Positions 18,083 to 63,907 of a stretch of 64,000 bases of DNA are shown here, in pieces. The notes under the pieces are model-generated. The model was not told the origin of the DNA. It did not search any database and saw nothing but the letters and a program-made list of their open reading frames with translations. The stretch's first letter is position 1; each line of letters opens with the position of its first letter. Source of the DNA: Candidatus Limnocylindria bacterium (GTDB lineage: Bacteria; Chloroflexota; Limnocylindria; P2-11E); contig DATCOD010000194.1 of the NCBI GenBank assembly GCA_036564905.1, positions 7,240 through 71,239 on the forward strand, read 5' to 3'. The position numbers were made by a program, and so were the translations under genes.

Positions 18083-19368
18083 CCGCTGCGGTCGAGATCA
18101 AGTACCAGGGCGAGCTGCATCTCCTGCAGAAGGAGATCATGGCGAAGTACTACGCCGAGGCGACCGCGATCGCCGAGGGGAACGGCAAGAAGGCCGCGCA
18201 CCTCCTGATCGCGGGGAACCCGGTCGAGCTCCTGCGGGCGTTCGACGTGCTCCCGATCTACCCGGAGGTGAACGTCCTCCAGATCGCGGTCCGGAAGGGC
18301 TCCCTCCCGCTCATCCAGAAGGCCGAAGAGCTCGGTTACGCGACGGACAACTGCGCCTACGTGAAAGCCGACATCGGTCTCTACCACGCCGGCGGCGTCA
18401 CGCCGTTCGCCAAGATCCCGAAGCCGGACGTGCTCGTGTGCAACTACGTCGGCTGCAACGTCTACCTCAACTGGTTCGAGCATCTCGCCGAGCTGACCGG
18501 CGCGCCGGCGATGAACATCGACATCCCGTTCATCCGCACGCCCGACGGCGAGCCGACCGCGGACGACGTCCGGTACGTGGTGAAGCAGCTCGAGGAGCTC
18601 ATCGTCCTTCTGGAGAACGTGACCGGGAAGAGCCTCGACTGGAAGGAATTCACGAAGATCGTCGAGCGCTCGTCCGAGACCGGACGCCTCTGGGCCGAGA
18701 TCAAGGACATGACCAAGGCGCGCCCGGCACCGTACGACGCCTACTTCGACTCGGTCACGATGATGGCCCCGCTCTACACGCTCCGCGGCACCGAGGAGGG
18801 CCTCCGGTTCTTCGAGGTCGCGCATCGCGAGATGAGCCAGCGGGTGCGCGAAGGCCGCGGCCCGCTCCCGGAGGAGCGGTTCCGCATCGTCATCGAGGGG
18901 CCGCCACCGTGGCCGAAGCTCCGGGTCTTCCGCGACATGTTCAGTCGCTGGGGCGCCGTCGCCGTCGCGTCCACCTATTCGACCGTCGGCGGGCTCTGGG
19001 AGTTCGGCTTCCGGCACGACCCGCAGCACCCGCTGGAGTCCATCGCCGCTCACATGCTGTCGTACAACGTCTGCAACCGGACCTTCCTCCAGCGCTATGA
19101 GCAGATCGAGCGGTACGTGGACGAGTGGCACGCCGACGCCGTGGTCATCCACTCGGTGAAGTCCTGCCGGCTCTTCTCCGCGGGGCAAGGCGACATGCGC
19201 GAGCACTTCGTCCGAGACCGCGACGTCCCGACGCTCCTCATCGAGTCCGATCTCGAGGACCCGCGCTACTTCTCGGAGGCGCAGCTCCGCAACCGCATCG
19301 ACGCCTTCTTCGAGGCGCTCGAGCAGCGGCGGATCACCGCGGGCAAGGCGGCCGGAGGGGTGTCATGA
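18079..19368 (+). CDS. Bcr/Hgd-like enzyme, HGD-D-type subunit 2 (BcrC/BadD/HgdA-like)
   Basis: 'NCAYVKADIG...LVCNYVGCNVYLNWFEHLA...VIHSVKSCRLFSAGQ' is the HGD-D-family Cys pattern. ATGA overlap with subunit 1. Confidence 0.75.
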   Translation: MTAAVEIKYQGELHLLQKEIMAKYYAEATAIAEGNGKKAAHLLIAGNPVELLRAFDVLPIYPEVNVLQIAVRKGSLPLIQKAEELGYATDNCAYVKADIGLYHAGGVTPFAKIPKPDVLVCNYVGCNVYLNWFEHLAELTGAPAMNIDIPFIRTPDGEPTADDVRYVVKQLEELIVLLENVTGKSLDWKEFTKIVERSSETGRLWAEIKDMTKARPAPYDAYFDSVTMMAPLYTLRGTEEGLRFFEVAHREMSQRVREGRGPLPEERFRIVIEGPPPWPKLRVFRDMFSRWGAVAVASTYSTVGGLWEFGFRHDPQHPLESIAAHMLSYNVCNRTFLQRYEQIERYVDEWHADAVVIHSVKSCRLFSAGQGDMREHFVRDRDVPTLLIESDLEDPRYFSEAQLRNRIDAFFEALEQRRITAGKAAGGVS

Positions 19369-20165
19369 GATACGCGGCGGGCGTCGATGTCGGATCCACG
19401 CAGACGAAGGCGATCATCGTCGACGAGCAGCAGCACATCATCGCCCGGTCCCTCACCGACACCGGCGCGTACCTCGTGCGTGCGGCCGACCGGGCCTTCC
19501 AGGCAGCGCTCGACGAGTCCGGGCTCGCCCGGGGCGACGTCGAGCAGGTCATCGGCACCGGCTATGGCCGATTCAAGGTCGAGTTCGGTGACGCGCAGGT
19601 GACCGAGATCTCGTGCCACGCGAAGGGCGCCTGGGCGCTCATTCCGGCCACCCGCACGGTCATCGACATCGGCGGCCAGGACACGAAGGCGATCAAGGTG
19701 AGCGACCACGGCGAGGTCCTCGACTTCGCGATGAACGACAAGTGCGCCGCGGGGAGCGGCCGGTTCCTCACCAACTCCGCCGAGGCGGTCGGGCTGCAGG
19801 TCTCAGAGATGGGCGAGCGGTCGATGGGCGCAAAGCAGCCCGTGCGTCTCTCGACCGTGTGCACGATCTTCGTCGAGTCCGACATCCTCCAGTACCTCGC
19901 TCAGGGGAAGAAGATCGAGGACATCCTGGCCGGGGTCCACGGCTCGATCGCCGCGCGCACCGTCGCCCTCGTCCGGCGCGTCGGCGCCGAGTCCGAGGTG
20001 ACGTTCACCGGCGGGGTCTCGCGCAACGTCGGCATCGTGAAGGCCGTGGAAGAGAAGCTCGCCACGCACGTGAACGTGAGCCCTGACTCGCACTACACCG
20101 GCGCGCTCGGCGCGGCGATCTTCGCGATGGAGCGGGTCGTCGCCGGCCGGGAGGTGCTCGCATGA
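19365..20165 (+). CDS. BadF/BadG/BcrA/BcrD-type ATPase subunit 1 (HgdC-like activator, ASKHA fold)
   Basis: 'AGVDVGSTQTKAIIVD', 'IDIGGQDTKAI', 'NDKCAAGSGRFL', 'TGGVSRN' are the acetate/sugar kinase-like ATPase motifs of HgdC/BcrAD. ATGA overlap upstream. Confidence 0.85.
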   Translation: MRYAAGVDVGSTQTKAIIVDEQQHIIARSLTDTGAYLVRAADRAFQAALDESGLARGDVEQVIGTGYGRFKVEFGDAQVTEISCHAKGAWALIPATRTVIDIGGQDTKAIKVSDHGEVLDFAMNDKCAAGSGRFLTNSAEAVGLQVSEMGERSMGAKQPVRLSTVCTIFVESDILQYLAQGKKIEDILAGVHGSIAARTVALVRRVGAESEVTFTGGVSRNVGIVKAVEEKLATHVNVSPDSHYTGALGAAIFAMERVVAGREVLA

Positions 20166-20965
20166 CGCTGATCGCCGGCATCGACATGGGCTCCCGAAGC
20201 GCGAAATGCGTGCTCATCGATGGGGACGCGGTCGTCGGGAGCGGGCTCGCGCGGATGCGCCCCGACTTCGCGGGTCTTGCGAACGAGGTCCTCGAGCTCG
20301 CGCTCGCGAAGGCCGGACGGCAGCGGACCGATGTCGCCTACATCGCGACGACCGGACTCGGCCGCTACAACGTGCCGCACCGCGACATCCAGATCACCGA
20401 CATCACCTGCGTCGCGCGGGGTGCCGCGCACCTCTTCCCGAACACCAGATCGGTGATCGACATCGGCGCGCAGACGACGCGCGCGATGCGCGTCAAGGAG
20501 GGCGGCCATGTCGTGGAGTTCCGGTCGAACGACAAGTGCGCCGCCGGCGCCGGCGGGTTCGCGGAGCGCGCGGCGCGTTACCTCGAGGTGAAGCTCGAGG
20601 ATCTCGGCGACCTGTCGCTCCGTGCCGACGGGGCCGAGGCCTTTACCTCGGTCTGCGCCGTGTTCGCGGAGTCCGAGATCATCAACCTCGTCACCGCCGG
20701 CACGAGCATCGAGAACATCGTCCGCGGGATCCACGACTCGCTCTCCGAGAAGGCTCTCCAGCTCCTGAAACGGGTCGGCCTCGAGCCCGAGCTCACCTTC
20801 GTGGGCGGCATGGCCCGGCAGGCCGGCCAGGTGAAGTCCCTCGAGACGGCGCTCGGGGTGTCGGTGAACGTCTCGCCGGATCCCGATCTCGTCGCGGCGC
20901 TCGGCGCCGCCCTCCTCGGGCGGCAGCGGTACGAGGGTCGTGCTTCGCAGGAGGTGGCGGCATGA
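20162..20965 (+). CDS. BadF/BadG/BcrA/BcrD-type ATPase subunit 2 (HgdC-like)
   Basis: 'AGIDMGSRSAKCVLID', 'IDIGAQTTRAM', 'NDKCAAGAGGF', 'VGGMARQ'. Paralogous to the preceding ATPase. Confidence 0.85.
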   Translation: MTLIAGIDMGSRSAKCVLIDGDAVVGSGLARMRPDFAGLANEVLELALAKAGRQRTDVAYIATTGLGRYNVPHRDIQITDITCVARGAAHLFPNTRSVIDIGAQTTRAMRVKEGGHVVEFRSNDKCAAGAGGFAERAARYLEVKLEDLGDLSLRADGAEAFTSVCAVFAESEIINLVTAGTSIENIVRGIHDSLSEKALQLLKRVGLEPELTFVGGMARQAGQVKSLETALGVSVNVSPDPDLVAALGAALLGRQRYEGRASQEVAA

Positions 20966-35782: not shown

Positions 35783-36595
35783 ATGTGGGTCGCCGTGCTG
35801 GGCCAGGGTGCGATCGGGACCCTCGTGAGCCGGACGCTGGACGGGCGCGTCGGGCTCGTACGGATCGATCGCACGAAGGCGCCACTCGAAGGCGCCGGGG
35901 ACCCGGTCGATATCGCGATCGTGGCGACGAAGTCGCAGGGGACCGCGTGGGCGGCTGAGACCGCACGCCGGGTCCTCGCGACCGACGGCACGGTGCTCAC
36001 GATCCAGAATGGGCTCGGGCACCGCGAGCGCCTGGCCGCGACGGTCGGGGACGACCGCGTCGCGGTCGGCGTCATCTACGTGGGCGCCGTGCTCGACGGT
36101 GAGGAGCTCCACACGACGGGTCCGGGACGCGTCGTCCTCGGGCGCGCGCGGCACGTCGACGAGCTTGCCGCGGCGCTCCAGGCAGGCGGCATGACCGCGT
36201 CCGTCGTCGACGACCCCTGGCCCGCGGTGTGGCGCAAGCTCGTCGGCAACGCCGCGGTGAATCCGGTGAGCGCGCTCGTCGGCATCACGAACGGCGAGCT
36301 GCTCGGGCACCTCGCGGCACGCATCGTCGACCGAGCCGCGAAGGAGGCCGCACGTGTTGCCTGCGCCGAGGGGGTCGCGATCACTGACGATGAGGCGATC
36401 CGGCTGTGGCGCGCGATGGCCGAGCTCACCGCGGCGAACCGCTCGTCGATGTTGCAGGACGTGCGCAGCGGCCGGCCCACGGAGATCGATTGGATCAACG
36501 GCGAGGTCGTGCGACGAGGTCGCCGGCATGCCATCCCGACGCCGGTGAACGACGCGCTGCTACAGCTCGTCGAGGTGGTGGAGGACTACCCCTAG
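35783..36595 (+). CDS. panE: 2-dehydropantoate 2-reductase (PanE/ApbA)
   Basis: 'VAVLGQGAIGTLV' Rossmann fold; 'NGLGH'; 'SSMLQDVRSGRPTEIDWINGEVVRRG' is the ApbA C-terminal signature. Confidence 0.8.
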   Translation: MWVAVLGQGAIGTLVSRTLDGRVGLVRIDRTKAPLEGAGDPVDIAIVATKSQGTAWAAETARRVLATDGTVLTIQNGLGHRERLAATVGDDRVAVGVIYVGAVLDGEELHTTGPGRVVLGRARHVDELAAALQAGGMTASVVDDPWPAVWRKLVGNAAVNPVSALVGITNGELLGHLAARIVDRAAKEAARVACAEGVAITDDEAIRLWRAMAELTAANRSSMLQDVRSGRPTEIDWINGEVVRRGRRHAIPTPVNDALLQLVEVVEDYP

Positions 36596-37659
36596 GGGTT
36601 CGTCACCAGGTCGGCGATCACCTTCGCGTCCTCGAACGTTCGACCGGCTCGCGCGTCCACCCCGTCGATCCGGCCGGTGCGGAACGCGGCGAACAGCGCC
36701 CGCTCGATCGCGTCATGCGCCGGGGTGATCCCGACGTGGTCCAGGAGCAGGGCGAGCGCGCCAACGGCACCGACCGGGCTCGCCGCTTTCTGGCCGGTGT
36801 ACTTCGGCGCCGAGCCGTGGATCGGCTCGAACATCGAGACCCGACCGGGGTGGATGTTCCCGGATGCGGCGATGCCGAGGCCGCCGCAGATCGCCGCCCC
36901 GAGGTCGGTGATGATGTCGCCGAACAGATTCGTCGTCACGATCACGCTGAACTGCTCGGGCTTCTGCACCAGCCACATGCACGCCGCGTCGACGTACATC
37001 GCGTCGTGCTCGACGTCGGGATACTCCGCGGCGACCTCCTCGAGCACATCTCGCCACAGCTGCTGGATCGGGACGGCGTTCGACTTGTCGACCAACGTGA
37101 CCTTCTTGCGGTCCACCGTGCGGGCCCGCTCGAAGGCGTATCGAGTGATGCGTTCGACCCCGCGGCGGGTGAAGACCATGTCCACCGACACACGCTCGTC
37201 GGGGGTGCCCTGATCGGTGCGCGTGCCCTGACGGCCATACACGTCCTCGGTGTTCTCGCGCATGACGAGGATGCGGATGTCATCCTCGGTCTTGTCCTTC
37301 AACGGAGAGAGCCGCGCGTCGTAGAGGGTCAGCGGTCGCAGATTGACGTACAGGTCGAGGCCGCGCCGAAAGCCGAAGATGATGTCGGCCTCGAGCATCC
37401 CGCGCGGCACCCCGGGATGGCCGACCGCGCCAAGCAGCACCGCGTCCAGCTTCTTGATCGGCTCGAGCGCCGCCGCGTCGAAGCGCCGGCCGTCGCGGAG
37501 GTACTGCTCGCCGGACCAGTCGAAGACGGTCCGCTCCGTGCGGAAGCCGAAGCGGGCTTCGCACGCGTCGAGCACGACGAGCGCCGCGTCCACGACCTCC
37601 GGGCCGATACCGTCGCCGCCGAGGATGCCGACCTTCACCGTGCGCGTGGGGCTGCTCAT
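36592..37659 (-). CDS. leuB: 3-isopropylmalate dehydrogenase family (LeuB-like; tartrate or isocitrate dehydrogenase relatives cannot be excluded)
   Basis: 'KVGILGGDGIGPEV', 'NLRPL', 'ENTEDVYG', 'NLFGDIITDLGAAICGGLGIAASGNI' are beta-decarboxylating dehydrogenase signatures. Last gene of the his transcription unit. Confidence 0.75.
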   Translation of the reverse strand: MSSPTRTVKVGILGGDGIGPEVVDAALVVLDACEARFGFRTERTVFDWSGEQYLRDGRRFDAAALEPIKKLDAVLLGAVGHPGVPRGMLEADIIFGFRRGLDLYVNLRPLTLYDARLSPLKDKTEDDIRILVMRENTEDVYGRQGTRTDQGTPDERVSVDMVFTRRGVERITRYAFERARTVDRKKVTLVDKSNAVPIQQLWRDVLEEVAAEYPDVEHDAMYVDAACMWLVQKPEQFSVIVTTNLFGDIITDLGAAICGGLGIAASGNIHPGRVSMFEPIHGSAPKYTGQKAASPVGAVGALALLLDHVGITPAHDAIERALFAAFRTGRIDGVDARAGRTFEDAKVIADLVTNP

Positions 37660-49844: not shown

Positions 49845-53268
<3,424 letters not shown>

Positions 53269-53272
<4 letters not shown>

Positions 53273-54513
53273 CCAGCACCGTCGCGGTCGCGACGCGATC
53301 CATGACCGTCGCGGACGCGGCCGTGGCCATCGCCGGGCAGGTCGAGCGCACGCCGCTCCTCGCGTCGCCGGATCTGTCCGCGCTCGCGGGCTGCGAGATC
53401 CATCTCAAGCTCGAGAACCTGCAGCGCACCGGTGCGTTCAAGCTGCGCGGCGCGCTCGCCCGGCTCCTCGCGCTCTCCAGCGAGGAGCGCGCGCGCGGCG
53501 TCGTCACCGCGTCCGCGGGCAACCACGGGCAGGGCGTCGCCGTCGGCGCCGCTGCGCTCGGGATCCCCGCCTGCGTCGTGCTCCCGCGCGGCGTGCCGCT
53601 GGCGAAGCTCACCGCGATCCAGCGCGCCGGCGCGGAGGTCGTGATCACCGGGTCGGACTACGACGAGGCGTTCGCCGCGGCGCGCGAGCTCGCCGCGGAG
53701 CGCCGCGCCGTCTACATCCACGCGTTCGACGATCCGGCCGTCATCGCGGGACAGGGGACCGTCGCTCGCGAGATGCTCGAGGACCGCCCCGACCTCGACG
53801 CCATCGTCGTGCCGGTCGGCGGTGGCGGGCTCCTCGCCGGGTCGGCCCTCGCGATCGCCGAGGCCGGCGCGTCCGTCGCGCTCGTCGGTGTCCAGGCCGC
53901 CGGCGCGACCGCGTTCGCCGACGCCGTCCGGAGCGGATCGATCGCCGCGGGCGGCAGCGCCACCATCGCCGACGGCATCGCGGTCCGCCGGCCGGCGGAG
54001 CGTACGGTGGCGATCGCGCGAGCGCACCGGGCGACGATGCGGATCGTCACGGATGAGGCGATCGCGCGCGCGATGGTGCTGCTGCTCGAGCGCCACAAGC
54101 TCCTCGCGGAGGCCGCGGGCGCCGCGGGCGTCGCCGCGCTGCTCGACGGAGCGGCCGAGCTCGCGGGCAAGCGGGTCGGCATCATCGTGAGCGGTGGCAA
54201 CATCGACCCGAACCTGCTCGGGAAGGTCGTGCAGCAGGGCCTCGCGAGCGCGGGCCGCTACCTCGCGTTCCGCACCTGGCTCGACGACCGTCCGGGACAG
54301 CTGCACGAGCTCACCGGCATCCTGGGCGGCGAGCACATCAACATCCTGCACGTCGGCATCCATCGCGTCGGGCCGTACACCGCGCTCGGGCGCGTGGGCC
54401 TCGATGTGATCGTCGATACCCGCGATGCCGCGCACGCCCAGGAGGTCCTGGCACTCGTGCGGCGCTCCGGCTTCCCGGCCGAGCAGCTCATCGACGTCCA
54501 GCCGGAGCGGTGA
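53269..54513 (+). CDS. ilvA: Threonine ammonia-lyase (biosynthetic, single regulatory domain)
   Basis: PLP-Lys '[18 protein letters not shown]', '[10 protein letters not shown]', 'GGGGLLAG', and a C-terminal ACT-like domain. ATGA overlap with ilvD. Confidence 0.9.
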
Positions 54514-54532
54514 GCTGACCGGCCGCACGCTC

Positions 54533-55918
54533 GTGGCGAAGGTGTGGGACGAGCACGTCGTCCGGCGCGCCCCGGGCGAGCCAGATCTCCTCTACGTCGA
54601 TCTGCATCTCGTGCACGAGGTGACCTCGCCGCAGGCGTTCGACGGCCTGCGCCTCGCCGGCCGCCGCGTGCGCCGTCCCGATCTCACGCTCGCGACCGCG
54701 GACCACAACATCCCGACCGTCCTGGACCGGCCGGTCGCCGACCCGGTCTCGGCGCGCCAGATCGACGCGCTGACCCGGAACTGCGCGGAGTTCGGCGTCC
54801 GCCTGTACCCGATGGGCGATGCCCGTCAGGGCATCGTGCACGTCATCGGGCCGCAGCTCGGTCTCAGCCAGCCGGGGATGGTCATCGTGTGTGGCGACAG
54901 CCACACCGCGACGCACGGCGCGCTCGGGGCGATCGCCTTCGGGATCGGGACCAGCGACGTCGAGCACGTGCTCGCGACGCAAACGATCCCGCGGACGCCT
55001 CCGCGCACGATGGCGGTCACGATCGACGGCCGGACGCCCGCGGACGTGAGCGCGAAGGACATCATCCTCGGCGTCATCGCGCGCATCGGGATCGGCGGCG
55101 GCACCGGCCACATCATCGAGTACCGCGGCGACGCGATCCGGGCCCTATCGATGGAGGGGCGGATGACCGTCTGCAACATGTCCATCGAGGCCGGCGCGCG
55201 CGCGGGGCTGATCGCGCCCGATGACACCACGTTCGCCTACCTGCGTGGCCGGATGCACGCGCCGGCCGGATCGGATTGGGACCGCGCGGTCGAGCACTGG
55301 CGCGGCCTCGCGACCGACGCCGACGCCTCGTTCGACCGCGAGGTGCGCATCGCCGCGGCCGACCTCCGGCCGTACGTGACCTGGGGCACGAATCCCGCGC
55401 AGGCCGTCGGCATCGACGGCCGGGTGCCCGACCCCGAAGCGCTCGCGGGCGATGCGGCACGGGAGAGCGCGCGGCGCGCGCTCGCGTACATGGATCTCCG
55501 CCCCGGCACGGCGATGCGCGACATCGCGGTCGATTCGGTGTTCCTGGGCTCGTGCACGAACGGGCGGATCGAGGACCTCCGGGCCGCGGCCGACGTGCTC
55601 CGCGGCCGCCGGGTCCGCGCCGGACTACGCGCGCTCGCGGTACCCGGGTCGATGGCCGTGAAGGCCCAGGCCGAGAGCGAGGGCCTCGATCGGATCTTCG
55701 TCGCGGCGGGGTTCGAGTGGCGCAGCGCCGGCTGCTCGATGTGCCTCGGGATGAACGACGACGTCGCCGCGCCGGGCGAGCGGGTCGCCTCGACGTCGAA
55801 CCGCAACTTCGAGGGCCGCCAGGGGCCGGGCGCGCGCACGCACCTCGTGTCCCCGGCCGTCGCCGCCGCCACCGCCGTGGCCGGACACCTCGCGACTCCG
55901 GCGGATCTCGCGCGATGA
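54533..55918 (+). CDS. leuC: 3-isopropylmalate dehydratase large subunit
   Basis: N-terminus '[10 protein letters not shown]' matches the LeuC N-terminus. '[24 protein letters not shown]', '[11 protein letters not shown]', '[11 protein letters not shown]', '[12 protein letters not shown]' are aconitase-family Fe-S ligand motifs. Confidence 0.9.
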
Positions 55919-56520
55919 GAGCCACCTCGCGCGTGACCGGCCGCGCGCTGCCGCTCGACCGCCGCGACGTCGACACCGATCAGATCATCCCGAGCGACTG
56001 GCTGAAGCGCGTCGAGCGCACCGGCTACGGCGCGGGGCTGTTCGCCGCGTGGCGAACGGATCCGGCATTCGCGCTCAACGACCCGCGGTTCGCGGGCGCG
56101 ACCGTCCTGGTGACCGGAGCGAACTTCGGCTGCGGGAGCTCGCGCGAGCACGCGGCCTGGGCGCTCGAGGACTGGGGCTTCCGCGCGATCGTCGCGCCGA
56201 GCTTCGCCGACATCTTCCGCTCGAACTGCCTCGCCGTCGGCCTCGTGCTCGCGGAGCTTCCGGAGGCCGACATCGCGCGCGTGCTCGCGGCGGTCGCGCG
56301 CGACCCATCGATCGAGGTCAGCGTCGACGTCGACCGGCGGATCGTCGAGGTGCCGGCGCTCGGCTACGCCGCGGCGTTCCCGCTGGACGACGCGTCGCGC
56401 GCGCGCCTGCTCGCGGGACAGGACGAGATCGACCTGAGCCTCGCCCACGCGGGCGAGATCGCGAGCTACGAGGCGCGGCGGCACGGGTGGCTGCCGCGCC
56501 TGCGGACCCCGTCGGGCTAG
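55915..56520 (+). CDS. leuD: 3-isopropylmalate dehydratase small subunit
   Basis: '[14 protein letters not shown]' and '[17 protein letters not shown]'. ATGA overlap with leuC. Confidence 0.9.
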
Positions 56521-57410
56521 CGCAGCTCCTTCGCGATCGCGCGCAGCTGCGCGAGCGTGTCGCCGCCGAGCATCTGGAGACAGACGTGGTCCGCGCCGGC
56601 GGCGTGCTGGGCCGCGACCCGGCCGGCGATGCTCCGGGCGTCGCCCGACGCGACGATCGCGTCCATCAGTTCTTCGCTCCCGCCGTCGGCCAGGTCCGCC
56701 TCGCTCCAGCCCAGGCGCCGCAGGTTGTTCGCGTAGTTCTCGAGCGCCAAGTAGTACTTGGTATGCCGTTTGGCCGCGGCGAGGATCTTCTCGCGGTCCA
56801 GGCCGACGACCGCGGCCTGCTCCACCGCGAGCAGCGGCTCGGCACCGAGCGCCTCGCGGGCGACGGCGGTGTGCTCCACCGGCACGAAGTACGGGTGCGC
56901 GCCCAGCGAACGCTCCGCCGCGAGGCGCAGCATCTGCGGGCCCAGCGCCGCCAGCACCCGGGGAGCGGGCGGCTCGTCGCGATTCGGGCCGACGAACGGC
57001 GCCGCGTCCATCGCGTCGAGGTACGCGCGCATGTGCTCCAGCGGCTTCCGGTAGGTGCCGCCCCGGATCGCGACGCTCGGCTTGTGGCTCACGCCGAGGC
57101 CCAGCAGGAACCGGTCGGGATAGGCCTCGCTGAGCGTCTTGGCGCCGTTCGCCATCGCGACCGGATCGCGGGCCCAGATGTTCGCGATGCCGGACGCGAC
57201 GATCAGGGTCTTCGTGGCCGCAAGGAGGATGCCCGCGTGGGCGAAGACCTCTTTGCTGCCCAGCGACTCCTGGATCCACAGGGTCTTGAAGCCCAGCGAT
57301 TCGACCTCGTTCGCGAACCTCCGCGCGTCCGCCGCGGTCATGCGCTCGGGGTCCGCGGACCACACGCCGACGGTGCCCAGCTGCGTTGCGGTCTCGCGTG
57401 CGGTCTTCAT
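56517..57410 (-). CDS. Luciferase-like monooxygenase (LLM) family, probable F420-dependent oxidoreductase
   Basis: Bacterial-luciferase TIM-barrel signatures 'VWSADP...FANEVESLGFKTLWIQES' and 'LGLGVSH'. Confidence 0.7.
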   Translation of the reverse strand: MKTARETATQLGTVGVWSADPERMTAADARRFANEVESLGFKTLWIQESLGSKEVFAHAGILLAATKTLIVASGIANIWARDPVAMANGAKTLSEAYPDRFLLGLGVSHKPSVAIRGGTYRKPLEHMRAYLDAMDAAPFVGPNRDEPPAPRVLAALGPQMLRLAAERSLGAHPYFVPVEHTAVAREALGAEPLLAVEQAAVVGLDREKILAAAKRHTKYYLALENYANNLRRLGWSEADLADGGSEELMDAIVASGDARSIAGRVAAQHAAGADHVCLQMLGGDTLAQLRAIAKELR

Positions 57411-57433
57411 CCGATGCGCGCATTCTCCCATCC

Positions 57434-58357
57434 GTGCGGCCATTCCGCTTCGCGATCACGACCTCCCGCGCCGGGTCCGGCCCGGAGTGGCGTGCGAAGG
57501 CCCGCCGGATCGAGGAGCTCGGCTACGACACCCTCCTGCTGACCGACCACATCACCTCGCAGCTCGCCCCGGTCCCCGCCCTGGCCGCGGCGCTCGAGGC
57601 GACGACCCGGCTGCGTGTCGGCAGCTACGTCTTCGCGAACGATTACCGCAATCCGTTCATGCTCGCGAAGGAGGTCGCCACGCTCGACGTGCTGTCCGGC
57701 GGGCGCGTCGAGTTCGGGATCGGCGCGGGGTGGCACGCGCGCGACTACGAGATGCTCGGCATCCCGTACGACGCGCCGGCGACCCGGGTCTCGCGGATGA
57801 TCGAAGCGGTCCGGCTCATCGACCGGCTCTTCGTCGAGGACACGGTCGACGCGAGTGGCCGCTACTACACGGTCCGCGGCGCGAAGCTGCTCCCCAAGCC
57901 GGTCCAGCGGCCACGGCCGCCGCTGATGATCGGCGGCGGCGGCCCGCGGATGCTCCGTTTCGCGGCGGAGCACGCGGACATCGTCGCGCTCAACCCGCAG
58001 TTCAGCGCGGACGGCCAGCCGGTCGTCTCCGACCTCACGACCGGCGCGACCGAGCGGAAGCTCGAGCGGCTACGCGCGGAGGTCGGCGCGCGGCTCGCCG
58101 AGGTGGAGCTGAACGTGTTCATCGTCGACGCGGGCGTGACCGATGAGCCGCGTTCGCGGTGGGACGCGCTGGCCACCCGCCTGAAGGGCGCGGCCGCACA
58201 GCTGGTGGACTCGCCGTACTTCCTCTACGGGTCGACCGCGGAGCTGAAGCGGCAGCTCCTCGCGCGCCGCGAGCGCCTCGGGATCACGTACATCGGGTTG
58301 CCGGAGCAGGCGATGGAGCCATTCGCGCCGCTCGTCCGGGAGATGCGCGGGGTCTAG
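57434..58357 (+). CDS. Luciferase-like monooxygenase (LLM) family, probable F420-dependent oxidoreductase
   Basis: 'FRFAITTS...ELGYDTLLLTDH', 'EFGIGAGW', 'RPPLMIGGGGPRMLRFAAEHADIV'. Divergent from the preceding LLM gene. Confidence 0.7.
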   Translation: MRPFRFAITTSRAGSGPEWRAKARRIEELGYDTLLLTDHITSQLAPVPALAAALEATTRLRVGSYVFANDYRNPFMLAKEVATLDVLSGGRVEFGIGAGWHARDYEMLGIPYDAPATRVSRMIEAVRLIDRLFVEDTVDASGRYYTVRGAKLLPKPVQRPRPPLMIGGGGPRMLRFAAEHADIVALNPQFSADGQPVVSDLTTGATERKLERLRAEVGARLAEVELNVFIVDAGVTDEPRSRWDALATRLKGAAAQLVDSPYFLYGSTAELKRQLLARRERLGITYIGLPEQAMEPFAPLVREMRGV

Positions 58358-58490: not shown

Positions 58491-60539
58491 CTAGATCCCG
58501 TAGCGCTCGGGCGTCCAACGCAGGCGCAGCTCGCTCGGCGGCGCCATGTATCCGAGCAACGCCGACGAGGCGACCACGGCCGGGCTCGCGAGATAGCCCT
58601 CGCCCCCGACGCCCATGCGGTTCTGCCAGTTCCGGTTGAACGACGTGATCGCGCGCTGGCCCTGCGCCAGCGCGTCGTCGCCCTGTCCGAAGCACGGGCC
58701 GCACCAGCTCATCCGGATCTCGGCACCGACCGAGCGCAGGACATCGGCGACCGACTCGCCGCCGAGGCGCGCGTCCGGCCGCTCGATCGCGTCCTTCACC
58801 GAGCCCGAGCCGGGGAAGACGACGAAATCCGTCGCCGCCTTCGTGTGGCCGGCGTCGCGCGCGCCCCGGACCACGAGGGCGGCCTGGAGCAGATCGTCGT
58901 AGCTCCCGTTCGTGCACGAGCCGATGTACGCCTTGTCGAACGCGAGGTGCTCGCTCGCAACGGCCTCCGCGGCGAACGCGTTGCCCGGCGAGAAGGGCTT
59001 CGCGATCATCGGCACGATCCCGGAAAGGTCCAGCGTCTCGTCGATCTCGTAGCGCGCGTCCCGACCGGGCCGCACGAGCGGGTAGGGGAGCGCGATGCCC
59101 ATCTTCCGGTACCAGGCGGCGGTGATCTCGTCCGCGGCGAAGATGCCGTTCTGCGCCTCGCCCTCGGCCATCATGTTCGCGATCGTGTTGCGATACGCGA
59201 TCGGCAGCTGGACGCGCTCGTCCACGAATTCGACGGACATGCCCTGCGACTGCGCGGTGCCCCAGCGCTCGAGGAGCGCCAGCACGATGTCCTTCCCGCT
59301 CACCCATGGCTGCAGGGCCCCGGTAAGCACGACGCGGCGCGCCTTCGACAGCGTCGTGAACACGTAACCGGTGGCCCAGCCGAAGCCGAGCGTCGTCGAG
59401 CCGACGCCGATGCCGACCGCGCCGTAGGCGCCGTACGCGCGCGAGTGCGAGTCCGCGCCGGCGACGAACGATCCGGGATGCACGAGCCCCTGCTCGGGGA
59501 AGTAGAAGTGGAAGATCCCGTCTCCCGGGGTCGCGTAGTACGGCGTTCGGATGCCGAACTTCTCCGCGAAGGCCTTCCCGATCGCCGTCTGCTTGTCGTC
59601 GGCCTCCTTGCGGGTGAACACGAAGTGATCGTTCGCCACCGCGATCTGCCTCGGGGCGATGGTGTCGCCGCCGGTGATCTGATTGAACGTGTGGATCGAG
59701 AACGGCGCGGTCCCGTCCGACGCCGGCAGCAGATCGGCGTACACGCGGAGCGTCGTGCCGGGCGTGACGTCGGCGTCCTTGTCGACGCGGTGCGCCCAGA
59801 TGATCCGTTCGGTCGTCGTCATCCGCCGAGCGGTCTCGTCGTCCGGCCATTCGATCTTCGGCTGCCGCCGCACCGAGTCGGCGAACTCGCGCCGGCCGAT
59901 CGTGAAGATCCCGCCCGAGCGGCGGATCTCGTCCTCCTTCGGCGTGAGCGGCTTCGGGTCGTAGGTCGTGCCCTGCGTCTCGTTCGTGAGCCTGCGGCTC
60001 GCGGGCTCGAAGCTGAACGCGTCGCCGTCCTGGGCATCGTCGACCGCGGCGGGCGATTGCACGACCTCGAGGCCGAGATTGAACGCGTTCCGGCGGAAGA
60101 TGTCGCCCATGTTGTCGCCGCACACGATCACCAGCTCGAGGCCCGCCTCCTCGGCGACGGCCTTCAGGCCGGCGGGGCTCATCTCGCGCGAGCTCCCGAT
60201 GGCGAACCGGTCGCCGGCGATCACGAACGTCTCGCCGCCGTGCACGCGCTTTCTGAAATCGGGCATCAGGAATCGGAACGAGCCGGCCTTCCAGCGCTCA
60301 TCGAGCGTATCGAGGCTCTCGGACACGCAGTCCTTGGCCGGAGTGATCTGGTCCGTGTCGATGGCGTCGAGCTTCTTCCCGGGGCGGCGCCCCGACCGAT
60401 CCCAGAAGATCAGCGACGTCCCGCGGATGCGGTGCTCTGAACGCGCGGCTTCGGGTGCGGCCGCGCGCCGCTCGATGTCCGCGGCGGTGACGCCCGGGAG
60501 GAGCTTCGCGGGCGCGATGCGATGGCGCACGTCGGTCAC
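58491..60539 (-). CDS. Aconitase-family hydro-lyase with fused LeuD-like swivel domain (N-terminal) and LeuC-like catalytic domain (C-terminal), 682 aa
   Basis: Swivel 'LDAIDTDQITPA...HGGETFVIAGDRFAIGSSREMSPAGL'; catalytic 'FVAGADSHSRAYGAYGAVGIGVGSTTLGF', 'YIGSCTNGSYDDL', 'MSWCGPCFGQGDD', 'FNRNWQNRMG'. GTG start 5 nt after the upstream stop. Confidence 0.8.
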   Translation of the reverse strand: MTDVRHRIAPAKLLPGVTAADIERRAAAPEAARSEHRIRGTSLIFWDRSGRRPGKKLDAIDTDQITPAKDCVSESLDTLDERWKAGSFRFLMPDFRKRVHGGETFVIAGDRFAIGSSREMSPAGLKAVAEEAGLELVIVCGDNMGDIFRRNAFNLGLEVVQSPAAVDDAQDGDAFSFEPASRRLTNETQGTTYDPKPLTPKEDEIRRSGGIFTIGRREFADSVRRQPKIEWPDDETARRMTTTERIIWAHRVDKDADVTPGTTLRVYADLLPASDGTAPFSIHTFNQITGGDTIAPRQIAVANDHFVFTRKEADDKQTAIGKAFAEKFGIRTPYYATPGDGIFHFYFPEQGLVHPGSFVAGADSHSRAYGAYGAVGIGVGSTTLGFGWATGYVFTTLSKARRVVLTGALQPWVSGKDIVLALLERWGTAQSQGMSVEFVDERVQLPIAYRNTIANMMAEGEAQNGIFAADEITAAWYRKMGIALPYPLVRPGRDARYEIDETLDLSGIVPMIAKPFSPGNAFAAEAVASEHLAFDKAYIGSCTNGSYDDLLQAALVVRGARDAGHTKAATDFVVFPGSGSVKDAIERPDARLGGESVADVLRSVGAEIRMSWCGPCFGQGDDALAQGQRAITSFNRNWQNRMGVGGEGYLASPAVVASSALLGYMAPPSELRLRWTPERYGI

Positions 60540-60544
60540 CGCGC

Positions 60545-61759
60545 TCAGTCTAGGTGGGCGAGCGCGCCGACCTCCTCCTCCGTGAGCAGCCGGTCCGACG
60601 CTTTCGCCGCCGCCATCACGCGATCGATCCGCGCGCGGGTCGGCTCGATGCCGCGCAGCTCGAGCCAGAACACGACGTTCGACTCGCCGCTCATCGGGCC
60701 GACCTCGATGCGCTGCTCGCGTCCCACGACGGACGCGGGGACGCCGCTGTACACGCGATCCGCGAGCGCCCGGTCCCCCATGCGGAGCGCCTTCACGACC
60801 GCGGCCGCATGCACGCCCGTCCCGGTGCGGAACGCGTCGGCACCGAGCACGGGGTAGTTCGGAGGCAATGCCGCGCCGCAGTGCTCGACCACGAGCGCGG
60901 CGTACTCGACGAGCGGCTCGAGGTCGGTCGTGATGAGCCCCCAGAGCCGGAGATTCACGAGCAGCTGGTCCATCGACGTATTGCCGACGCGCTCGCCGAT
61001 GCCGAGGGCGGTGCCGTGGACTCGATCGGCGATCGCTGTCGCGGCCAGCGCGTTGATCGTGCCGAGGCCGCGGTCGTTGTGGCCGTGGAAGTCGAGTTTC
61101 ACGTCGCGCCCCTTGATGATGTCGGCGCGGATGAAGGTCAGCAGGTTGCGCACGCCCTCGGGCGTGGCGTGGCCCACGGTGTCCGACGCGCAGATCCGTT
61201 TCGCCCCGGCGCCGATGGCGGTCTCGTACAGCGTGACGAGCGTCGACGGATCCGCGCGGGTGGTGTCCTCGGTCACGAACATGACCGGCAACCCGTTCCG
61301 GGTCGCCAGGCTGACCGACTCCTCCACCTGCTTCCGCATGGTGTCGATCGACCAGCTCTCGGCGACCCGGCGGATCGGGCTCGAGCCGATGAACGCGCAG
61401 GTCTCGATGGCCACACCTGATGCGACCGCCGCTTGGATCGCGCCGTTGATGTCGGCGGGATGCGTGCGACATGCCACGTTCGGCGTGATGCGGAGCTTCG
61501 CCGTCTCCGTCGCGAGCGCGACGATCTCCTCGCGCGCCCGCGCCGAGGCGCCGGGGAGGCCGATGTCCGCGCTCTGGATCCCGAGCTGATCCATCAGGTG
61601 GAGGAGCCGGATCTTCACGTCGAGCGGCGGATTGCGGACCGATGGGCCCTGGAGGCCGTCGCGCAGCGTCTCGTCATCGAGCTCGACGGCACGGTAATCG
61701 GCGCGCGCGGCGCGACCGTCACGGTTCCAGTCGTACACGAGGGCGTCGAGCTCGCTCAC
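60545..61759 (-). CDS. DRE-TIM metallolyase family protein (LeuA/homocitrate synthase/HMG-CoA lyase-like 2-oxoacid:acyl-CoA C-acyltransferase), 404 aa, no LeuA regulatory domain
   Basis: 'DDETLRDGLQ', 'KLDFHGHNDRGLGTINALAA', 'VHGTALGIGERVGNTSMDQL'. Confidence 0.7.
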   Translation of the reverse strand: MSELDALVYDWNRDGRAARADYRAVELDDETLRDGLQGPSVRNPPLDVKIRLLHLMDQLGIQSADIGLPGASARAREEIVALATETAKLRITPNVACRTHPADINGAIQAAVASGVAIETCAFIGSSPIRRVAESWSIDTMRKQVEESVSLATRNGLPVMFVTEDTTRADPSTLVTLYETAIGAGAKRICASDTVGHATPEGVRNLLTFIRADIIKGRDVKLDFHGHNDRGLGTINALAATAIADRVHGTALGIGERVGNTSMDQLLVNLRLWGLITTDLEPLVEYAALVVEHCGAALPPNYPVLGADAFRTGTGVHAAAVVKALRMGDRALADRVYSGVPASVVGREQRIEVGPMSGESNVVFWLELRGIEPTRARIDRVMAAAKASDRLLTEEEVGALAHLD

Positions 61760-62856
61760 CGGACCGGCCCGGCGATCGGGCGTGCCATGACCACGTGGCC
61801 GTTGTCCCAGGCGAGCAGCGCGATCTCGCGCGGATCGACGCCTACGTGGCGCGTGGCGGTGAACGTGTACGTCGTGGCGATGCCGGCGAATGTACCGCCC
61901 TCGATGCGCGCCCGCGACCGCTCGGCATCGCCGGCCGCGTCGGCGCTCGCCGCGAGCAGCGCGAGCGCATCGGTCGCGGTGGCGGCATGCGTTCCGACGG
62001 CCAGCTCCGTCGGGCGGCGCAGGCCCGGCCAGCGCACGCCCGCGGCGCTGCTGCCAAGGCGGCTCGCTTCGTTCGGGTCGGTCAGATAGGAAAGGAACAC
62101 CAGCACCGTGGTCGCCGGGTCGGCCGCCGGCACCACGCGCACCGGATCGAGGTAGGCCGCCGTCGGGCCGGTGAAGAACATGCCCGAGCTCGTGCCGAGG
62201 AATGGTCTGGACCGCTGGGCGAAGAGCTCCCGCTGATCCGGCGCCGCGCTCATCGTGAGCGGCGCGGCGCGGCCCTCCGCGCGGAACGCCCCGTCCAAGG
62301 CGACCTTCTCGCGGCCCGATGCGAGCGTGCCGCTTGTCACGACGATCCCCGGTGTGGCGGGCGTCGGGAGGGCATCGACGAGCGCCCGCGCGAGCGCGTC
62401 GGGGGTCGGCGCCAGCCCGAAGATCCAGCGCGCCGCGTCGCCGGTCGGCTCGGGGATCGGAAGCGTGAACAGCACCGGACGCCGCACGAGCGCGATCGCG
62501 CCCATGAGCGCATCGTCGAGCGTCGCGGGCACGCCGATCACGAACGCGTCGGTATCACCGGCGTCCGCGGCACGCTTCAGCTCGAGGAGCAGCTTCGCGT
62601 CGCTCCCGGCGACATCGACGATCCGCAGCTTCACCCGCGGCGACGTGCGTTGCGCGCCGCTCGATGCCCACTGCTGCATCGCGCTGCGCTGCGCGTCGCC
62701 GCGTGGCCCGCGGCTGCCCGACAGGTCGAGGAGCGCCGTGACCGCGTACGTGCCGGGCTCGCGGGTCGGCGATGGCGTCGGTGCGGCGGTCGACGGCGGT
62801 GGCGCGGCGCACGTGGCGACGAGCAGGGCGAGCCCGATGAGGCCCGCGCGCTTCAA
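61756..62856 (-). CDS. Lipoprotein, periplasmic substrate-binding protein (type I PBP / LivJ-like fold, tentative)
   Basis: Signal/lipobox 'MKRAGLIGLALLVATC' from a TTG start, then a Pro/Thr linker and an alternating beta-alpha pattern 'KLRIVDVAGSDA...AFVIGVPATLDDAL'. Family call is weak. Confidence 0.45.
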   Translation of the reverse strand: MKRAGLIGLALLVATCAAPPPSTAAPTPSPTREPGTYAVTALLDLSGSRGPRGDAQRSAMQQWASSGAQRTSPRVKLRIVDVAGSDAKLLLELKRAADAGDTDAFVIGVPATLDDALMGAIALVRRPVLFTLPIPEPTGDAARWIFGLAPTPDALARALVDALPTPATPGIVVTSGTLASGREKVALDGAFRAEGRAAPLTMSAAPDQRELFAQRSRPFLGTSSGMFFTGPTAAYLDPVRVVPAADPATTVLVFLSYLTDPNEASRLGSSAAGVRWPGLRRPTELAVGTHAATATDALALLAASADAAGDAERSRARIEGGTFAGIATTYTFTATRHVGVDPREIALLAWDNGHVVMARPIAGPVR

Positions 62857-62860
62857 CGCT

Positions 62861-63907
62861 CTACGCGCGGGTGCCGCCCGGGATGCCGTCCTTCGCGTAC
62901 ACGTGCAGAAGGAGGTCCAGGGCGCTGGGGTCGGGCGCGGCCTCGGCTTCGTCGATCGAGCGCTCGATCTCGGCCGCGATCTCCGCACGGAGCGCATCGA
63001 GCGCGGACCGCGGCACCCCCTGCGACAGGAGGTAGTCGCGACCTTTGTCGACGGGGTCCTTCGCCTGCCATTCCTTCAACGCGTCCTTTGAGCGGTAGCG
63101 CGAGTCGTCGTCGTCGGAGCTGTGCGGCTGGTAGCGGTAGCACTTGACCTCGACGATGCTCGGCCCCTCGCCGCGGCGCGCGCGGTCCGCGGCCTCCTTC
63201 GTCTTGGCGTAGACGTCGAGGACGTCCGTGCCGTCGGCGATGAGGCCGGGGATCCCGTACCCCGCGGCGCGGTCCGCGACGTTCGGCACGCTCATCTGCT
63301 TCGCGGTCGGCGTGGAGATCGCGAACAGGTTGTTCTCGATGACGAACACGACCGGGAGCTTGTGGATCGCGGCGAAGTTGACGGCCTCGTGGAAGTCGCC
63401 CGGGCTGGTGGAGCCGTCGCCGCCGTACGTGAAGACGACGCGGTCCTCCTTACGCACCTTGATCGCGAGCGCGATCCCCGCGGCCTGCGGGAACTGCGTC
63501 GCGATGCAGACCGACCCGGTGACGATGTTCGCCTCGGGCGAGCTGAACTGGTTCACGATCTGGCGCCCGCCGGAGTTCGGATCGGTCGCCTTCGCGAAGA
63601 CGCCGAGGAACTGGTCCTTCGCGGTCTGGCCGAGCACGAGCGCGACGCCGACGTCCCGGTAGTATGGATGGACCCAGTCGTGACCGCGCCGGATGAGCCA
63701 GGCGGAGCCGACCTCGGCGGCCTCGTGCCCGTCGGCCACGCCGACGAAGGCCGCGCGGCCCATCCGGTTCATCTGCATCATCCGCTCGCCGAGCATCCGG
63801 GTGAGGAGCATCGCGCGATACATCCCCTTCGCGTCGTCGAGCGTGAGGCCCAGAGCTTCATGACGCGATCGCGGCTGGGCCTTCTGTTGACCGGTCTTGA
63901 TCGCCAT
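62861..63907 (-). CDS. Thiamine-diphosphate-dependent 2-oxoacid dehydrogenase E1 component, alpha subunit
   Basis: TPP motif 'YGGDGSTSPGDFHEAVNFAAIHKLPVVFVIENN'; 'YRYQPHSSDDD'. Confidence 0.8.
   Translation of the reverse strand: MAIKTGQQKAQPRSRHEALGLTLDDAKGMYRAMLLTRMLGERMMQMNRMGRAAFVGVADGHEAAEVGSAWLIRRGHDWVHPYYRDVGVALVLGQTAKDQFLGVFAKATDPNSGGRQIVNQFSSPEANIVTGSVCIATQFPQAAGIALAIKVRKEDRVVFTYGGDGSTSPGDFHEAVNFAAIHKLPVVFVIENNLFAISTPTAKQMSVPNVADRAAGYGIPGLIADGTDVLDVYAKTKEAADRARRGEGPSIVEVKCYRYQPHSSDDDDSRYRSKDALKEWQAKDPVDKGRDYLLSQGVPRSALDALRAEIAAEIERSIDEAEAAPDPSALDLLLHVYAKDGIPGGTRA

Follow-up and report, generated by a model that had tools for sequence, protein, structure and literature searches.

The 64,000-nt window analyzed here comes from Candidatus Limnocylindria (Chloroflexota; DATCOD010000194.1, positions 7,240-71,239), and all window coordinates are relative to it. 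From 63907 to 58491 its minus strand carries four close-packed genes that encode, in this order, a thiamine pyrophosphate (TPP)-dependent 2-oxoacid dehydrogenase E1-alpha, a lipoprotein binding protein, a DRE-TIM synthase, and a fused, circularly permuted hydro-lyase of the aconitase superfamily that we call ACNp; the last two are the subject of this study. The synthase gene (61759-60545, minus strand; 404 aa) begins with a GTG that overlaps the stop codon of the gene upstream (GTGA), and its own TGA stop is followed, after a spacer of only 5 nt (gcgcg), by the GTG start of ACNp at 60539. ACNp (60539-58491, minus strand; 682 aa) is composed of a swivel domain, a linker and the [4Fe-4S] catalytic domains. 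Both genes are real, since hundreds of public homologs share 68-91% (synthase) and 72-91% (ACNp) identity with them. An earlier note on this DNA had delimited the two open reading frames (ORFs) and described the first as a DRE-TIM protein with RDGLQ and HGHND motifs that lacks the LeuA_dimer domain, which the ORF check and Pfam bear out. It had read the second, 5 nt downstream, as an aconitase-family protein with a LeuD-like domain ahead of a LeuC-like one, in agreement with our results from Pfam, NCBIfam, the PDB and an AlphaFold model.

Family assignment of the synthase

The synthase matches PF00682 (HMGL-like, E = 2e-39) and consists of the catalytic barrel and the post-catalytic subdomain. 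The LeuA_dimer regulatory domain (PF08502) is absent, as it is from NifV, the Re-citrate synthases and the homocitrate synthases (HCS) of Thermus and Sulfolobus. Its motifs are LRDGLQ, TEDTTRAD, SDTVGHATP, FHGHNDRG, GIGERVGN and FRTGTGVH, the last of which reads F[AS]H[EK][SA]G[IM]H in the family; LRDGLQ, TEDTTR, FHGHND and GIGERVGN were located by alignment to 6KTQ, 2ZTJ and 3RMJ. The HMGL-like barrel, the Arg-Asp (R-D), His-x-His (H-x-H), Glu-Asp (E-D) and GERxGN motifs and the post-catalytic subdomain are those of the LeuA/HCS/CimA/Re-citrate synthase family, and they place the protein in the LeuA/HCS-type DRE-TIM condensing superfamily. Models of LeuA/NifV/LysS-type synthases scored 168-193 bits, compared to 21 bits for HMG-CoA lyase and 37-49 bits for 4-hydroxy-2-oxovalerate aldolase. 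An identity as lyase or aldolase was therefore rejected, and the grouping with these enzymes that the earlier note had named as the outcome that would count against its reading was not seen.

None of the curated NCBIfam cut-offs was reached by the synthase or by ACNp. The best NCBIfam matches of the synthase were the 2-isopropylmalate synthase (IPMS) subfamily (192 bits; cut-off 517), NifV (177 bits; cut-off 463) and LysS (174 bits; cut-off 414). Identity to Re-citrate synthases, NifV, IPMS, CimA, and the Thermus and Sulfolobus HCS was only 24-32%, indicating that the synthase is not an ortholog of any characterized reference; the Re-citrate synthase reference sequences, characterized and putative, were those in the supplement of PMC12016533. 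The top match was Sulfolobus HCS, which is also the best PDB match (6KTQ, 30% identity, 133 bits).

The substrate-binding positions were compared in the alignments. The positions of Arg133 and Ser135 of the Thermus homocitrate synthase (TtHCS) are occupied by Met and Val, and that of TtHCS His72 by Asn or, the alignment being ambiguous there, by Ala or Thr, but in no case by His. The Arg of the R-x-[CS]-D-T motif, which the NifV sequence and each of the seven Re-citrate synthases in the alignment have, is a Cys in the synthase, and the Asn/Pro pair of IPMS is missing (INIPDTVG reads ICASDTVG). Several identities were rejected on these grounds. A 2-isopropylmalate synthase (LeuA) would be expected to score near its model cut-off (192 bits versus 517), to carry PF08502 and to retain the Asn/Pro pair in place of ICASDT, as the window's true LeuA does on all three counts. 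A homocitrate synthase of the lysine or NifV type would conserve the residues that bind the distal carboxylate and would not score so far below the cut-offs. Assignment as a Re-citrate synthase by orthology (to the C. kluyveri, S. aciditrophicus, D. mccartyi or H. modesticaldum type) fails because identity, at 24-29%, does not exceed that to IPMS or HCS and the common Arg is missing. The CimA models also scored far below their cut-offs (TIGR00977, 107 bits versus 450; Leptospira CimA model, 59 bits versus 950), so that the synthase falls outside the CimA clades known so far. A citramalate synthase would be expected to have a small hydrophobic pocket for pyruvate; a substrate that is small and aliphatic would be compatible with the hydrophobic Met and Val. 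Judged from the alignments, we infer a 2-oxoacid substrate that would lack a second carboxylate and would not be ketoisovalerate bound in the standard IPMS manner.

Domain architecture and distribution of ACNp

In ACNp, Pfam detects PF00330 at aa 312-663 (E = 1e-74) and, weakly, PF00694 at aa 95-157. NCBIfam and PDB sequence searches match LeuD-type small-subunit models to aa 57-222 and LeuC/HacA-type large-subunit models to aa 240-671. The LeuD-like swivel domain (59895-60422, minus strand; about aa 40-215) contains the catalytic GSSRE and is defined by LEUD_arch (aa 58-214, E = 1e-18) and by the PDB small subunits 3VBA, 1V7L and 2PKP; it scored 49.8 bits with the small subunit of isopropylmalate isomerase (IPMI) versus 31.7 bits with that of homoaconitase. 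The LeuC/HacA-like catalytic domains (58530-59822, minus strand; aa 240-670) were delimited by HMMER alignments to 4KP2, 4NQY and 5ACN together with the invariant columns of the family, and their best PDB match is the Methanocaldococcus jannaschii (M. jannaschii) homoaconitase 4KP2. Against the best NCBIfam IPMI/homoaconitase models, ACNp scored 295, 264 and 257 bits where the cut-offs are 385, 386 and 611, respectively.

An AlphaFold model built from a 75-sequence family alignment (pLDDT 90.3, pTM 0.92) replaced an earlier one from 10 near-identical sequences, which had a pLDDT of 57 and was discarded. Foldseek searches against the PDB fitted the large subunits of M. jannaschii IPMI/homoaconitase to the C-terminal two thirds of the model (TM 0.85-0.88, target-normalized) and IPMI small subunits to its N-terminal part (TM 0.77-0.83, target-normalized). 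Escherichia coli AcnB was the only full-length match with the same domain order (TM 0.73 on the query, E = 5e-37, 19% identity).

The catalytic apparatus is complete. The cluster ligands C542, C613 and C616 and the swivel-domain GSSRE (S116, S117, R118) are invariant across the family, as are D304-H305, H344, D363-S364-H365, N455, E459, N635-R636 and R641. The three Cys, the swivel Ser, the Asp-His pairs, and the Asn-Arg plus Arg together make ACNp a [4Fe-4S] hydro-lyase of the aconitase superfamily. The specificity loop (60321-60332, minus strand, located by alignments), which follows DTDQITP, reads D70-C71-V72-S73, in which C71, V72 and S73 do not vary within the family. With the conserved DTDxIxP taken as anchor, this DCVS loop would be equivalent in position to YLVM of methanogen IPMI and YLRT of methanogen homoaconitase. 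The loop contains no invariant Arg or Lys, Lys69 being Ala in one family member (P0241), and ACNp lacks an equivalent both of aconitase Arg580 and of the YLRT Arg of homoaconitase; Val72 stands there, as Val does in methanogen IPMI, so ACNp may still work like an IPMI. S274 occupies the position of Gln72 of mitochondrial aconitase, which is His in IPMI and homoaconitase. In characterized enzymes, the positions at which ACNp differs line the substituent pocket.

The closest known systems are the methanogen IPMI and homoaconitase (M. jannaschii LeuCD, MJ0499/MJ1277, and HacAB, MJ1003/MJ1271; PDB 4KP1, 4NQY, 4KP2, 3VBA and 2PKP), whose large subunits are 26-29% identical to ACNp in the Foldseek alignments (E = 6e-47 to 2e-45). 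ACNp has the same three Cys ligands, GSSRE serine and Asp-His pairs. Unlike these enzymes, it is a single chain that starts with the small-subunit domain and not a pair of subunits (nor the large-then-small fusion of fungi), it carries DCVS for YLVM/YLRT and Ser274 for His, and its DSH motif continues SRAYGAYGA instead of TCTHGAFGA. For these reasons, and because the models fell below their cut-offs, we rejected an assignment as LeuCD or HacAB. E. coli AcnB (1L5J) also places a swivel domain before domains 1-3, but ACNp has only about 40 residues before the swivel, with no N-terminal HEAT-like domain, and it lacks the Arg for the gamma-carboxylate. The AcnB models cover the C-terminal third alone and scored 93 (NF006690) and 55 bits (TIGR00117) versus cut-offs of 782 and 1287, and AcnB was rejected as well. 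Because the ACNp sequence is nearer to LeuC/HacA than to AcnB, the shared swivel-first order probably reflects an independent fusion. Aconitase A or mitochondrial aconitase was rejected given Ser274 in place of Gln72 and the missing Arg580 equivalent. AcnX (mevalonate-5-phosphate and hydroxyproline dehydratases), which the earlier note had named among the groupings that would count against its reading, is ruled out by Pfam, NCBIfam and the fold search, which place ACNp with PF00330 and LeuC/HacA: Pfam found PF00330 and PF00694 and no DUF521/DUF126-type domains, and AcnX structures were distant fold matches at 9-10% identity.

The closest relatives are metagenome-assembled genomes (MAGs) of Candidatus Limnocylindria. 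ACNp homologs are 72-91% identical across the family, and at 72-77% identity they include proteins of Acidobacteriota (Vicinamibacteria among them), Eisenbacteria, Krumholzibacteriia, Latescibacteria, Thermoanaerobaculia and one Armatimonadetes MAG. At least 565 species-representative genomes carry the gene. The family comprises more than 6,500 clusters at 90% identity and collapses into a single cluster at 50%. A neighbor-joining tree of loci L001-L084, calculated with no support values, is star-like with very short internal branches and divides Chloroflexota into two groups, one of which stands beside Eisenbacteria sequences. This shape suggests horizontal spread, very strong constraint, or both. 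The only bridges to the rest of the superfamily are two singletons, P0243 (46% identical) and P0248 (43%), which have the CVS loop and SDGTAP in common with ACNp but not Arg367; the one readable context among them, with a pyridoxal phosphate-dependent enzyme upstream, was uninformative. Automatic pipelines annotate the family as "3-isopropylmalate dehydratase large subunit" or LeuC, and we located no paper that describes swivel-first LeuDC fusions or the central metabolism of Limnocylindria.

The domain order had been considered typical of AcnB only. This holds among characterized enzymes, but several uncharacterized families have it, including ones from cultured Paraburkholderia and Caballeronia. 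These other swivel-first proteins, from a Gottesmanbacteria MAG of the Candidate Phyla Radiation, from metagenome assemblies and from cultured Paraburkholderia, Caballeronia, Burkholderia and Microvirga, are likewise single chains of 585-660 aa in small-then-large order (P. terrae WP_229518126.1, Burkholderia sp. YI23 AET93907.1, Candidatus Gottesmanbacteria KKS46717.1), but they are 28-34% identical to ACNp and have other specificity loops. Those at loci L086, L092 and L093 lie in accessory, apparently catabolic clusters with major facilitator superfamily (MFS) transporters, a LysR regulator or an isocitrate lyase (ICL)-family lyase. At L086 (8001-12038) the swivel-first gene is followed by genes for an ICL/phosphoenolpyruvate (PEP)-mutase-family lyase, an isochorismatase and a hydrolase; at L092 (1035-7821; Paraburkholderia terrae) it is accompanied by an HMG-CoA-lyase-like gene, a CaiB CoA-transferase, HppD, an MFS transporter and a LysR regulator; and L087 (5988-9785) holds two tandem swivel-first paralogs.

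Gene neighborhoods of the pair

The synthase lies upstream of ACNp in all 17 Chloroflexota loci with enough upstream sequence, including both ACNp groups that are separate in the tree. No synthase homolog of the DRE-TIM type was found within 10 kb of ACNp in any of the 59 informative loci from other phyla, and the pairing is thus specific to Limnocylindria. In those phyla the neighbors of ACNp are housekeeping genes (ApaG, RecQ, IspG, ETF-QO, a 2Fe-2S ferredoxin, a NifU-like protein and gyrB), and neighborhood clustering of about 60 loci outside Chloroflexota revealed no conserved metabolic partner. By-eye motif identification placed small Fe-S-related genes beside ACNp, namely a thioredoxin-like 2Fe-2S ferredoxin downstream of ACNp at seven loci (L018, L019, L041, L055, L068, L069 and L077) and a NifU-like protein upstream at five (L023, L028, L034, L059 and L065); the loci flanked in this way belong to several Acidobacteriota and Latescibacteria/Krumholzibacteriia.

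Within Limnocylindria the block of E1-alpha, binding protein, synthase and ACNp is conserved, including in the lineage of L046 and L088. In this second Chloroflexota lineage, synthase and ACNp are separated in L088 by genes for a metallo-beta-lactamase-fold protein and a cupredoxin (2643-3712) and in L046, at the same place, by about 1.7 kb without annotation (2975-4662). Downstream of ACNp on the same strand, every Limnocylindria locus that reaches far enough encodes an F420-dependent luciferase-like oxidoreductase of the TIGR03620 family, here LLM2 (56517-57443, minus strand, in the window). A second such enzyme of the TIGR03621 family, LLM1 (57386-58357, plus strand), is convergent with ACNp in the window and is absent between ACNp and LLM2 in L016, L017 and L029.

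Past LLM2, the next identified gene in the Limnocylindria loci is either the cluster of branched-chain amino acid (BCAA) genes or a gene for a beta-decarboxylating dehydrogenase of the isopropylmalate dehydrogenase (IPMDH) type, except in L013 and L016. In L029 a single strand carries the synthase, ACNp, LLM2 and the IPMDH-type gene, with intergenic gaps of some 30 nt; the L017 contig, which begins inside ACNp, shows the last three of them on a common strand; and L006 and L015 follow the order of L029, except that LLM1 is inserted in the opposite orientation. In the window and in L005, L008 and L009, the canonical BCAA cluster abuts in place of the IPMDH-type gene, and the adjacency to this cluster described earlier is real. 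The cluster consists of leuD, leuC, ilvA, ilvD, leuA, ilvC and ilvB, with no leuB. Its leuC (54425-55918, plus strand) and leuD (55915-56520, plus strand) both exceed the NCBIfam LeuC/LeuD cut-offs, and its leuA, with the LeuA_dimer regulatory domain (49848-51602, plus strand), scored 783 bits with TIGR00970 versus a cut-off of 697. ACNp is therefore a second isomerase, and the DRE-TIM gene a second synthase, in this genome.

The window's own IPMDH-type gene (36592-37659, minus strand; 355 aa) lies 21 kb from the pair, after hisF and hisIE, and is a 75-88% identical ortholog of the gene downstream of synthase, ACNp and LLM2 in sister Limnocylindria (L006, 14604-15668; L029, 4207-5262; L017, 2937-3983). 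In the window lineage it has moved to a place behind hisF and hisIE and is convergent with panE, a neighbor kept in L006. The protein scored 367.5 bits with NF002898 (LeuB, actinobacterial-type) versus a cut-off of 393, with tartrate dehydrogenase as the next match, and by our own reading its substrate loop (LEADIIFGFRR) would present a Glu plus hydrophobic residues.

Upstream of the pair, the E1-alpha gene (62861-63907, minus strand; PF00676, E = 2e-86) scored 317 bits with TIGR03181 versus a cut-off of 411, its best NCBIfam match being the pyruvate dehydrogenase (PDH) E1-alpha model. No E1-beta partner was found in the window or the fetched loci, a moderately strong negative since the query was an approximate Bacillus subtilis PdhB sequence. 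The lipoprotein solute-binding protein of the Peripla_BP_6 (LivJ-like) family (61756-62856, minus strand) most likely starts at TTG 62856 and not at ATG 62997. This TTG, 4 nt past the E1-alpha stop, gives a canonical lipoprotein signal peptide (MKRAGLIGLALLVATC), whereas the mechanical ORF (61756-62997) overlaps E1-alpha by 137 nt. The window copy has no significant Pfam match (only DUF7332, E = 0.06). It is 44% identical to the L015 copy, which, like that of L088, passes the Peripla_BP_6 threshold of 31.7 bits (42 and 57 bits, respectively). The presence of both genes in the operon had been predicted and is confirmed by PF00676 and by Peripla_BP_6 in the orthologs. Rfam detected no riboswitch, T-box or leader in the window, L006, L029 or L088, and a promoter/terminator scan gave no signal above chance.

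Two features elsewhere in the window were recorded. A ThyX gene (PF02511; 2241-4670, plus strand) is interrupted by an intein with an HNH endonuclease domain (PF14890, PF01844). A gene for the D-component of a 2-hydroxyacyl-CoA dehydratase (PF06050), followed by two BcrAD/BadFG-type ATPases (17815-20965, plus strand), is flanked between 8781 and 28038 by an acyl-CoA synthetase, two acyl-CoA dehydrogenases, a short-chain dehydrogenase/reductase, an enoyl-CoA hydratase and a thiolase. In the Limnocylindria lineage we had not expected radical dehydratase or benzoyl-CoA-reductase-like chemistry.

A putative second 2-oxoacid elongation route and its alternatives

With a probability of about one half, we propose that the synthase and ACNp catalyze successive steps of a second alkylmalate route of the Leu-like kind in Limnocylindria, one that lengthens a monocarboxylic 2-oxoacid by one carbon. 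The synthase, using its Asp/His-x-His metal site and having no allosteric domain, would condense acetyl-CoA or another short acyl-CoA with the 2-oxoacid to form a 2-alkylmalate. ACNp would then dehydrate it to an alkylmaleate and rehydrate this to a 3-alkylmalate by means of the [4Fe-4S] cluster (C542, C613, C616) and the swivel serine of GSSRE, and the IPMDH-type dehydrogenase would oxidatively decarboxylate the product to a 2-oxoacid one carbon longer. Such a module, beside the BCAA genes, would be Leu-like and feedback-insensitive, and the interleaved F420-dependent LLM oxidoreductase may process an intermediate or the product. The most likely candidate substrates would be pyruvate, which would lead by way of citramalate to 2-oxobutyrate and isoleucine, or an aliphatic 2-oxoacid with a branched or straight chain. 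Elongation of pyruvate to 2-oxobutyrate through citramalate would be the simplest case, but we give it low odds because ilvA is present and the synthase is not in a known CimA clade.

Several lines of evidence point to this route. The 5-nt spacer and the start/stop overlaps tie E1-alpha, binding protein, synthase and ACNp together. The position of the synthase upstream of ACNp in all 17 informative Chloroflexota loci, the intact catalytic residues of ACNp, the preference of its swivel domain for the IPMI small subunit, the LeuB-like score and loop of the IPMDH-type protein, and the BCAA or IPMDH-type genes past LLM2 point the same way. Synthase, isomerase and dehydrogenase occur together in L029 and, as far as the contig reaches, in L017, and nearly so in L006 and L015. 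The three-enzyme logic of the known elongation modules (leucine; citramalate to isoleucine; methanogen AksA/AksDE/AksF; plant methionine) is thereby matched on one strand in L029. Unlike these modules, the window has its dehydrogenase 21 kb away, the F420-dependent LLM is interleaved between isomerase and dehydrogenase, and the isomerase is fused and permuted. The chain elongation suggested by the earlier note thus gains from the position of the IPMDH-type gene and loses from the restriction of the pairing to Limnocylindria. Of the individual routes it had listed, the homocitrate and coenzyme-B routes use a dicarboxylic 2-oxoacid, and the alignments argue against both, as the residues for a distal carboxylate are missing in the synthase and in ACNp. 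For a phosphinothricin-type route no such context is present. Together, the missing carboxylate-binding residues of the two proteins speak for a 2-oxoacid of the monocarboxylic type and against chemistry of the homocitrate or Re-citrate kind.

A number of observations weigh against the proposed route. In the other phyla, ACNp stands alone in 59 of 59 informative loci, with neither synthase nor dehydrogenase nor BCAA genes lying within 10 kb, indicating that the core function of ACNp needs no such synthase. The operon also holds apparently unrelated genes, namely the orphan E1-alpha and the binding protein and, in L006 (4768-7673), a thiamine pyrophosphokinase and a cation/proton antiporter directly before E1-alpha. 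Given an E1-alpha with no E1-beta and these upstream genes in L006, operon membership is weak evidence for a common substrate: the genes from which it had been argued that the operon probably processes a 2-oxoacid are there, but the argument carries little weight. Since the window's BCAA cluster has no leuB, the IPMDH-type gene may be the only leuB of the genome, and its adjacency may mirror general BCAA synteny. With leuA, leuCD and ilvA already encoded, the need for a second route is unexplained. Both proteins are clear members of superfamilies with known chemistry, but neither clade has an experimentally characterized member and neither protein reaches a curated cut-off, and the roles assigned to the pocket residues are suggested by alignments and not by a ligand-bound structure.

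The alternative that survives best, and that we nevertheless consider unlikely, is that the two genes are not functionally coupled. ACNp would have an autonomous housekeeping role, for example as an isopropylmalate or citramalate isomerase replacing LeuC and LeuD, and the pairing would be lineage-specific synteny in a mixed operon. The 72-77% identity of ACNp across Acidobacteriota, Eisenbacteria, Krumholzibacteriia, Latescibacteria and Chloroflexota, its wide occurrence among species-level genomes, the star-like tree, and the housekeeping neighbors with no synthase nearby in other phyla are all consistent with such a role. Against it, every informative Chloroflexota locus keeps the pairing, which in the window has a spacer of only 5 nt; the L046/L088 lineage retains it despite two genes inserted between; and Limnocylindria already have a canonical LeuCD.

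It is improbable that the pair is a Re-citrate synthase and an aconitase feeding the tricarboxylic acid (TCA) cycle, with E1-alpha supplying acetyl-CoA. Re-citrate synthases are relatives of LeuA and NifV, often misannotated, and are present in Chloroflexota (PMC12016533, PMC3971608). The order of a PDH-like E1-alpha, a synthase and an aconitase-family protein would make a coherent entry into the TCA cycle, and a strongly conserved stand-alone ACNp would fit central metabolism. However, the synthase shares only 24-29% identity with Re-citrate synthases from all three groups, which is not above its identity to IPMS or HCS, and lacks their Arg before [CS]-D-T; ACNp has no Arg580 equivalent and has Ser for Gln72, and the AcnA and AcnB models gave it 41-93 bits versus cut-offs of 686-1420; and the linked dehydrogenase resembles LeuB and tartrate dehydrogenase, not isocitrate dehydrogenase.

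Similarly low is the probability of a catabolic or specialized-metabolite system, in which ACNp would hydrate an imported unsaturated dicarboxylate and the DRE-TIM enzyme would act as lyase or aldolase. The operon does contain a solute-binding protein, and other swivel-first proteins do occur in catabolic clusters, such as P0370, followed by an ICL/PEP-mutase-family lyase and an isochorismatase, and the Paraburkholderia terrae protein with its HMG-CoA-lyase-like, CoA-transferase, MFS transporter and LysR neighbors. Those families are, however, only about 30% identical to ACNp with different specificity loops, the tight conservation and housekeeping neighborhoods of ACNp are atypical of accessory catabolic genes, the synthase models far outscore the lyase and aldolase models, and no transporter permease, ATPase or regulator gene lies beside the operon. 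A homocitrate synthase and homoaconitase pair for alpha-aminoadipate lysine synthesis or Aks-type 2-oxoadipate elongation is very improbable, for even though the best PDB matches are Sulfolobus HCS (6KTQ) and M. jannaschii homoaconitase (4KP2), the NifV and LysS scores are good, and homocitrate synthases likewise lack the regulatory domain, the synthase does not conserve TtHCS His72, Arg133 and Ser135, Val stands in the ACNp loop at the position of the carboxylate-binding Arg of homoaconitase, all homocitrate synthase and homoaconitase models fall far under their cut-offs, and the annotated regions of the window hold no LysW, LysX or aminotransferase genes.

Beyond Limnocylindria, we tentatively suggest that ACNp is a widespread, highly constrained and experimentally uncharacterized enzyme (72-91% identity, at least five phyla) with a housekeeping reaction. 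Its substrate could lie outside the known set of citrate, methylcitrate, homocitrate, isopropylmalate, citramalate and dimethylmalate, or it could take over completely from LeuCD or from aconitase in Vicinamibacteria, Eisenbacteria, Krumholzibacteriia and Latescibacteria, with the Limnocylindria synthase as its dedicated partner; if so, that synthase would reveal the ACNp pathway. Because the Limnocylindria operon is the only place here where context hints at partners of ACNp (the synthase, the F420-type oxidoreductase and the IPMDH-type dehydrogenase), the window is a practical entry point for biochemistry. ACNp forms a distinct fused and permuted clade in phyla that abound in soil and sediment, is conserved to the degree of a core enzyme, and offers a second example of the swivel-first topology, probably independent of AcnB. 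Assigning its reaction would correct thousands of annotations and could alter metabolic reconstructions of Acidobacteriota, Limnocylindria and several candidate phyla, be it in amino-acid prototrophy, in the completeness of the TCA cycle or by a new 2-oxoacid route.

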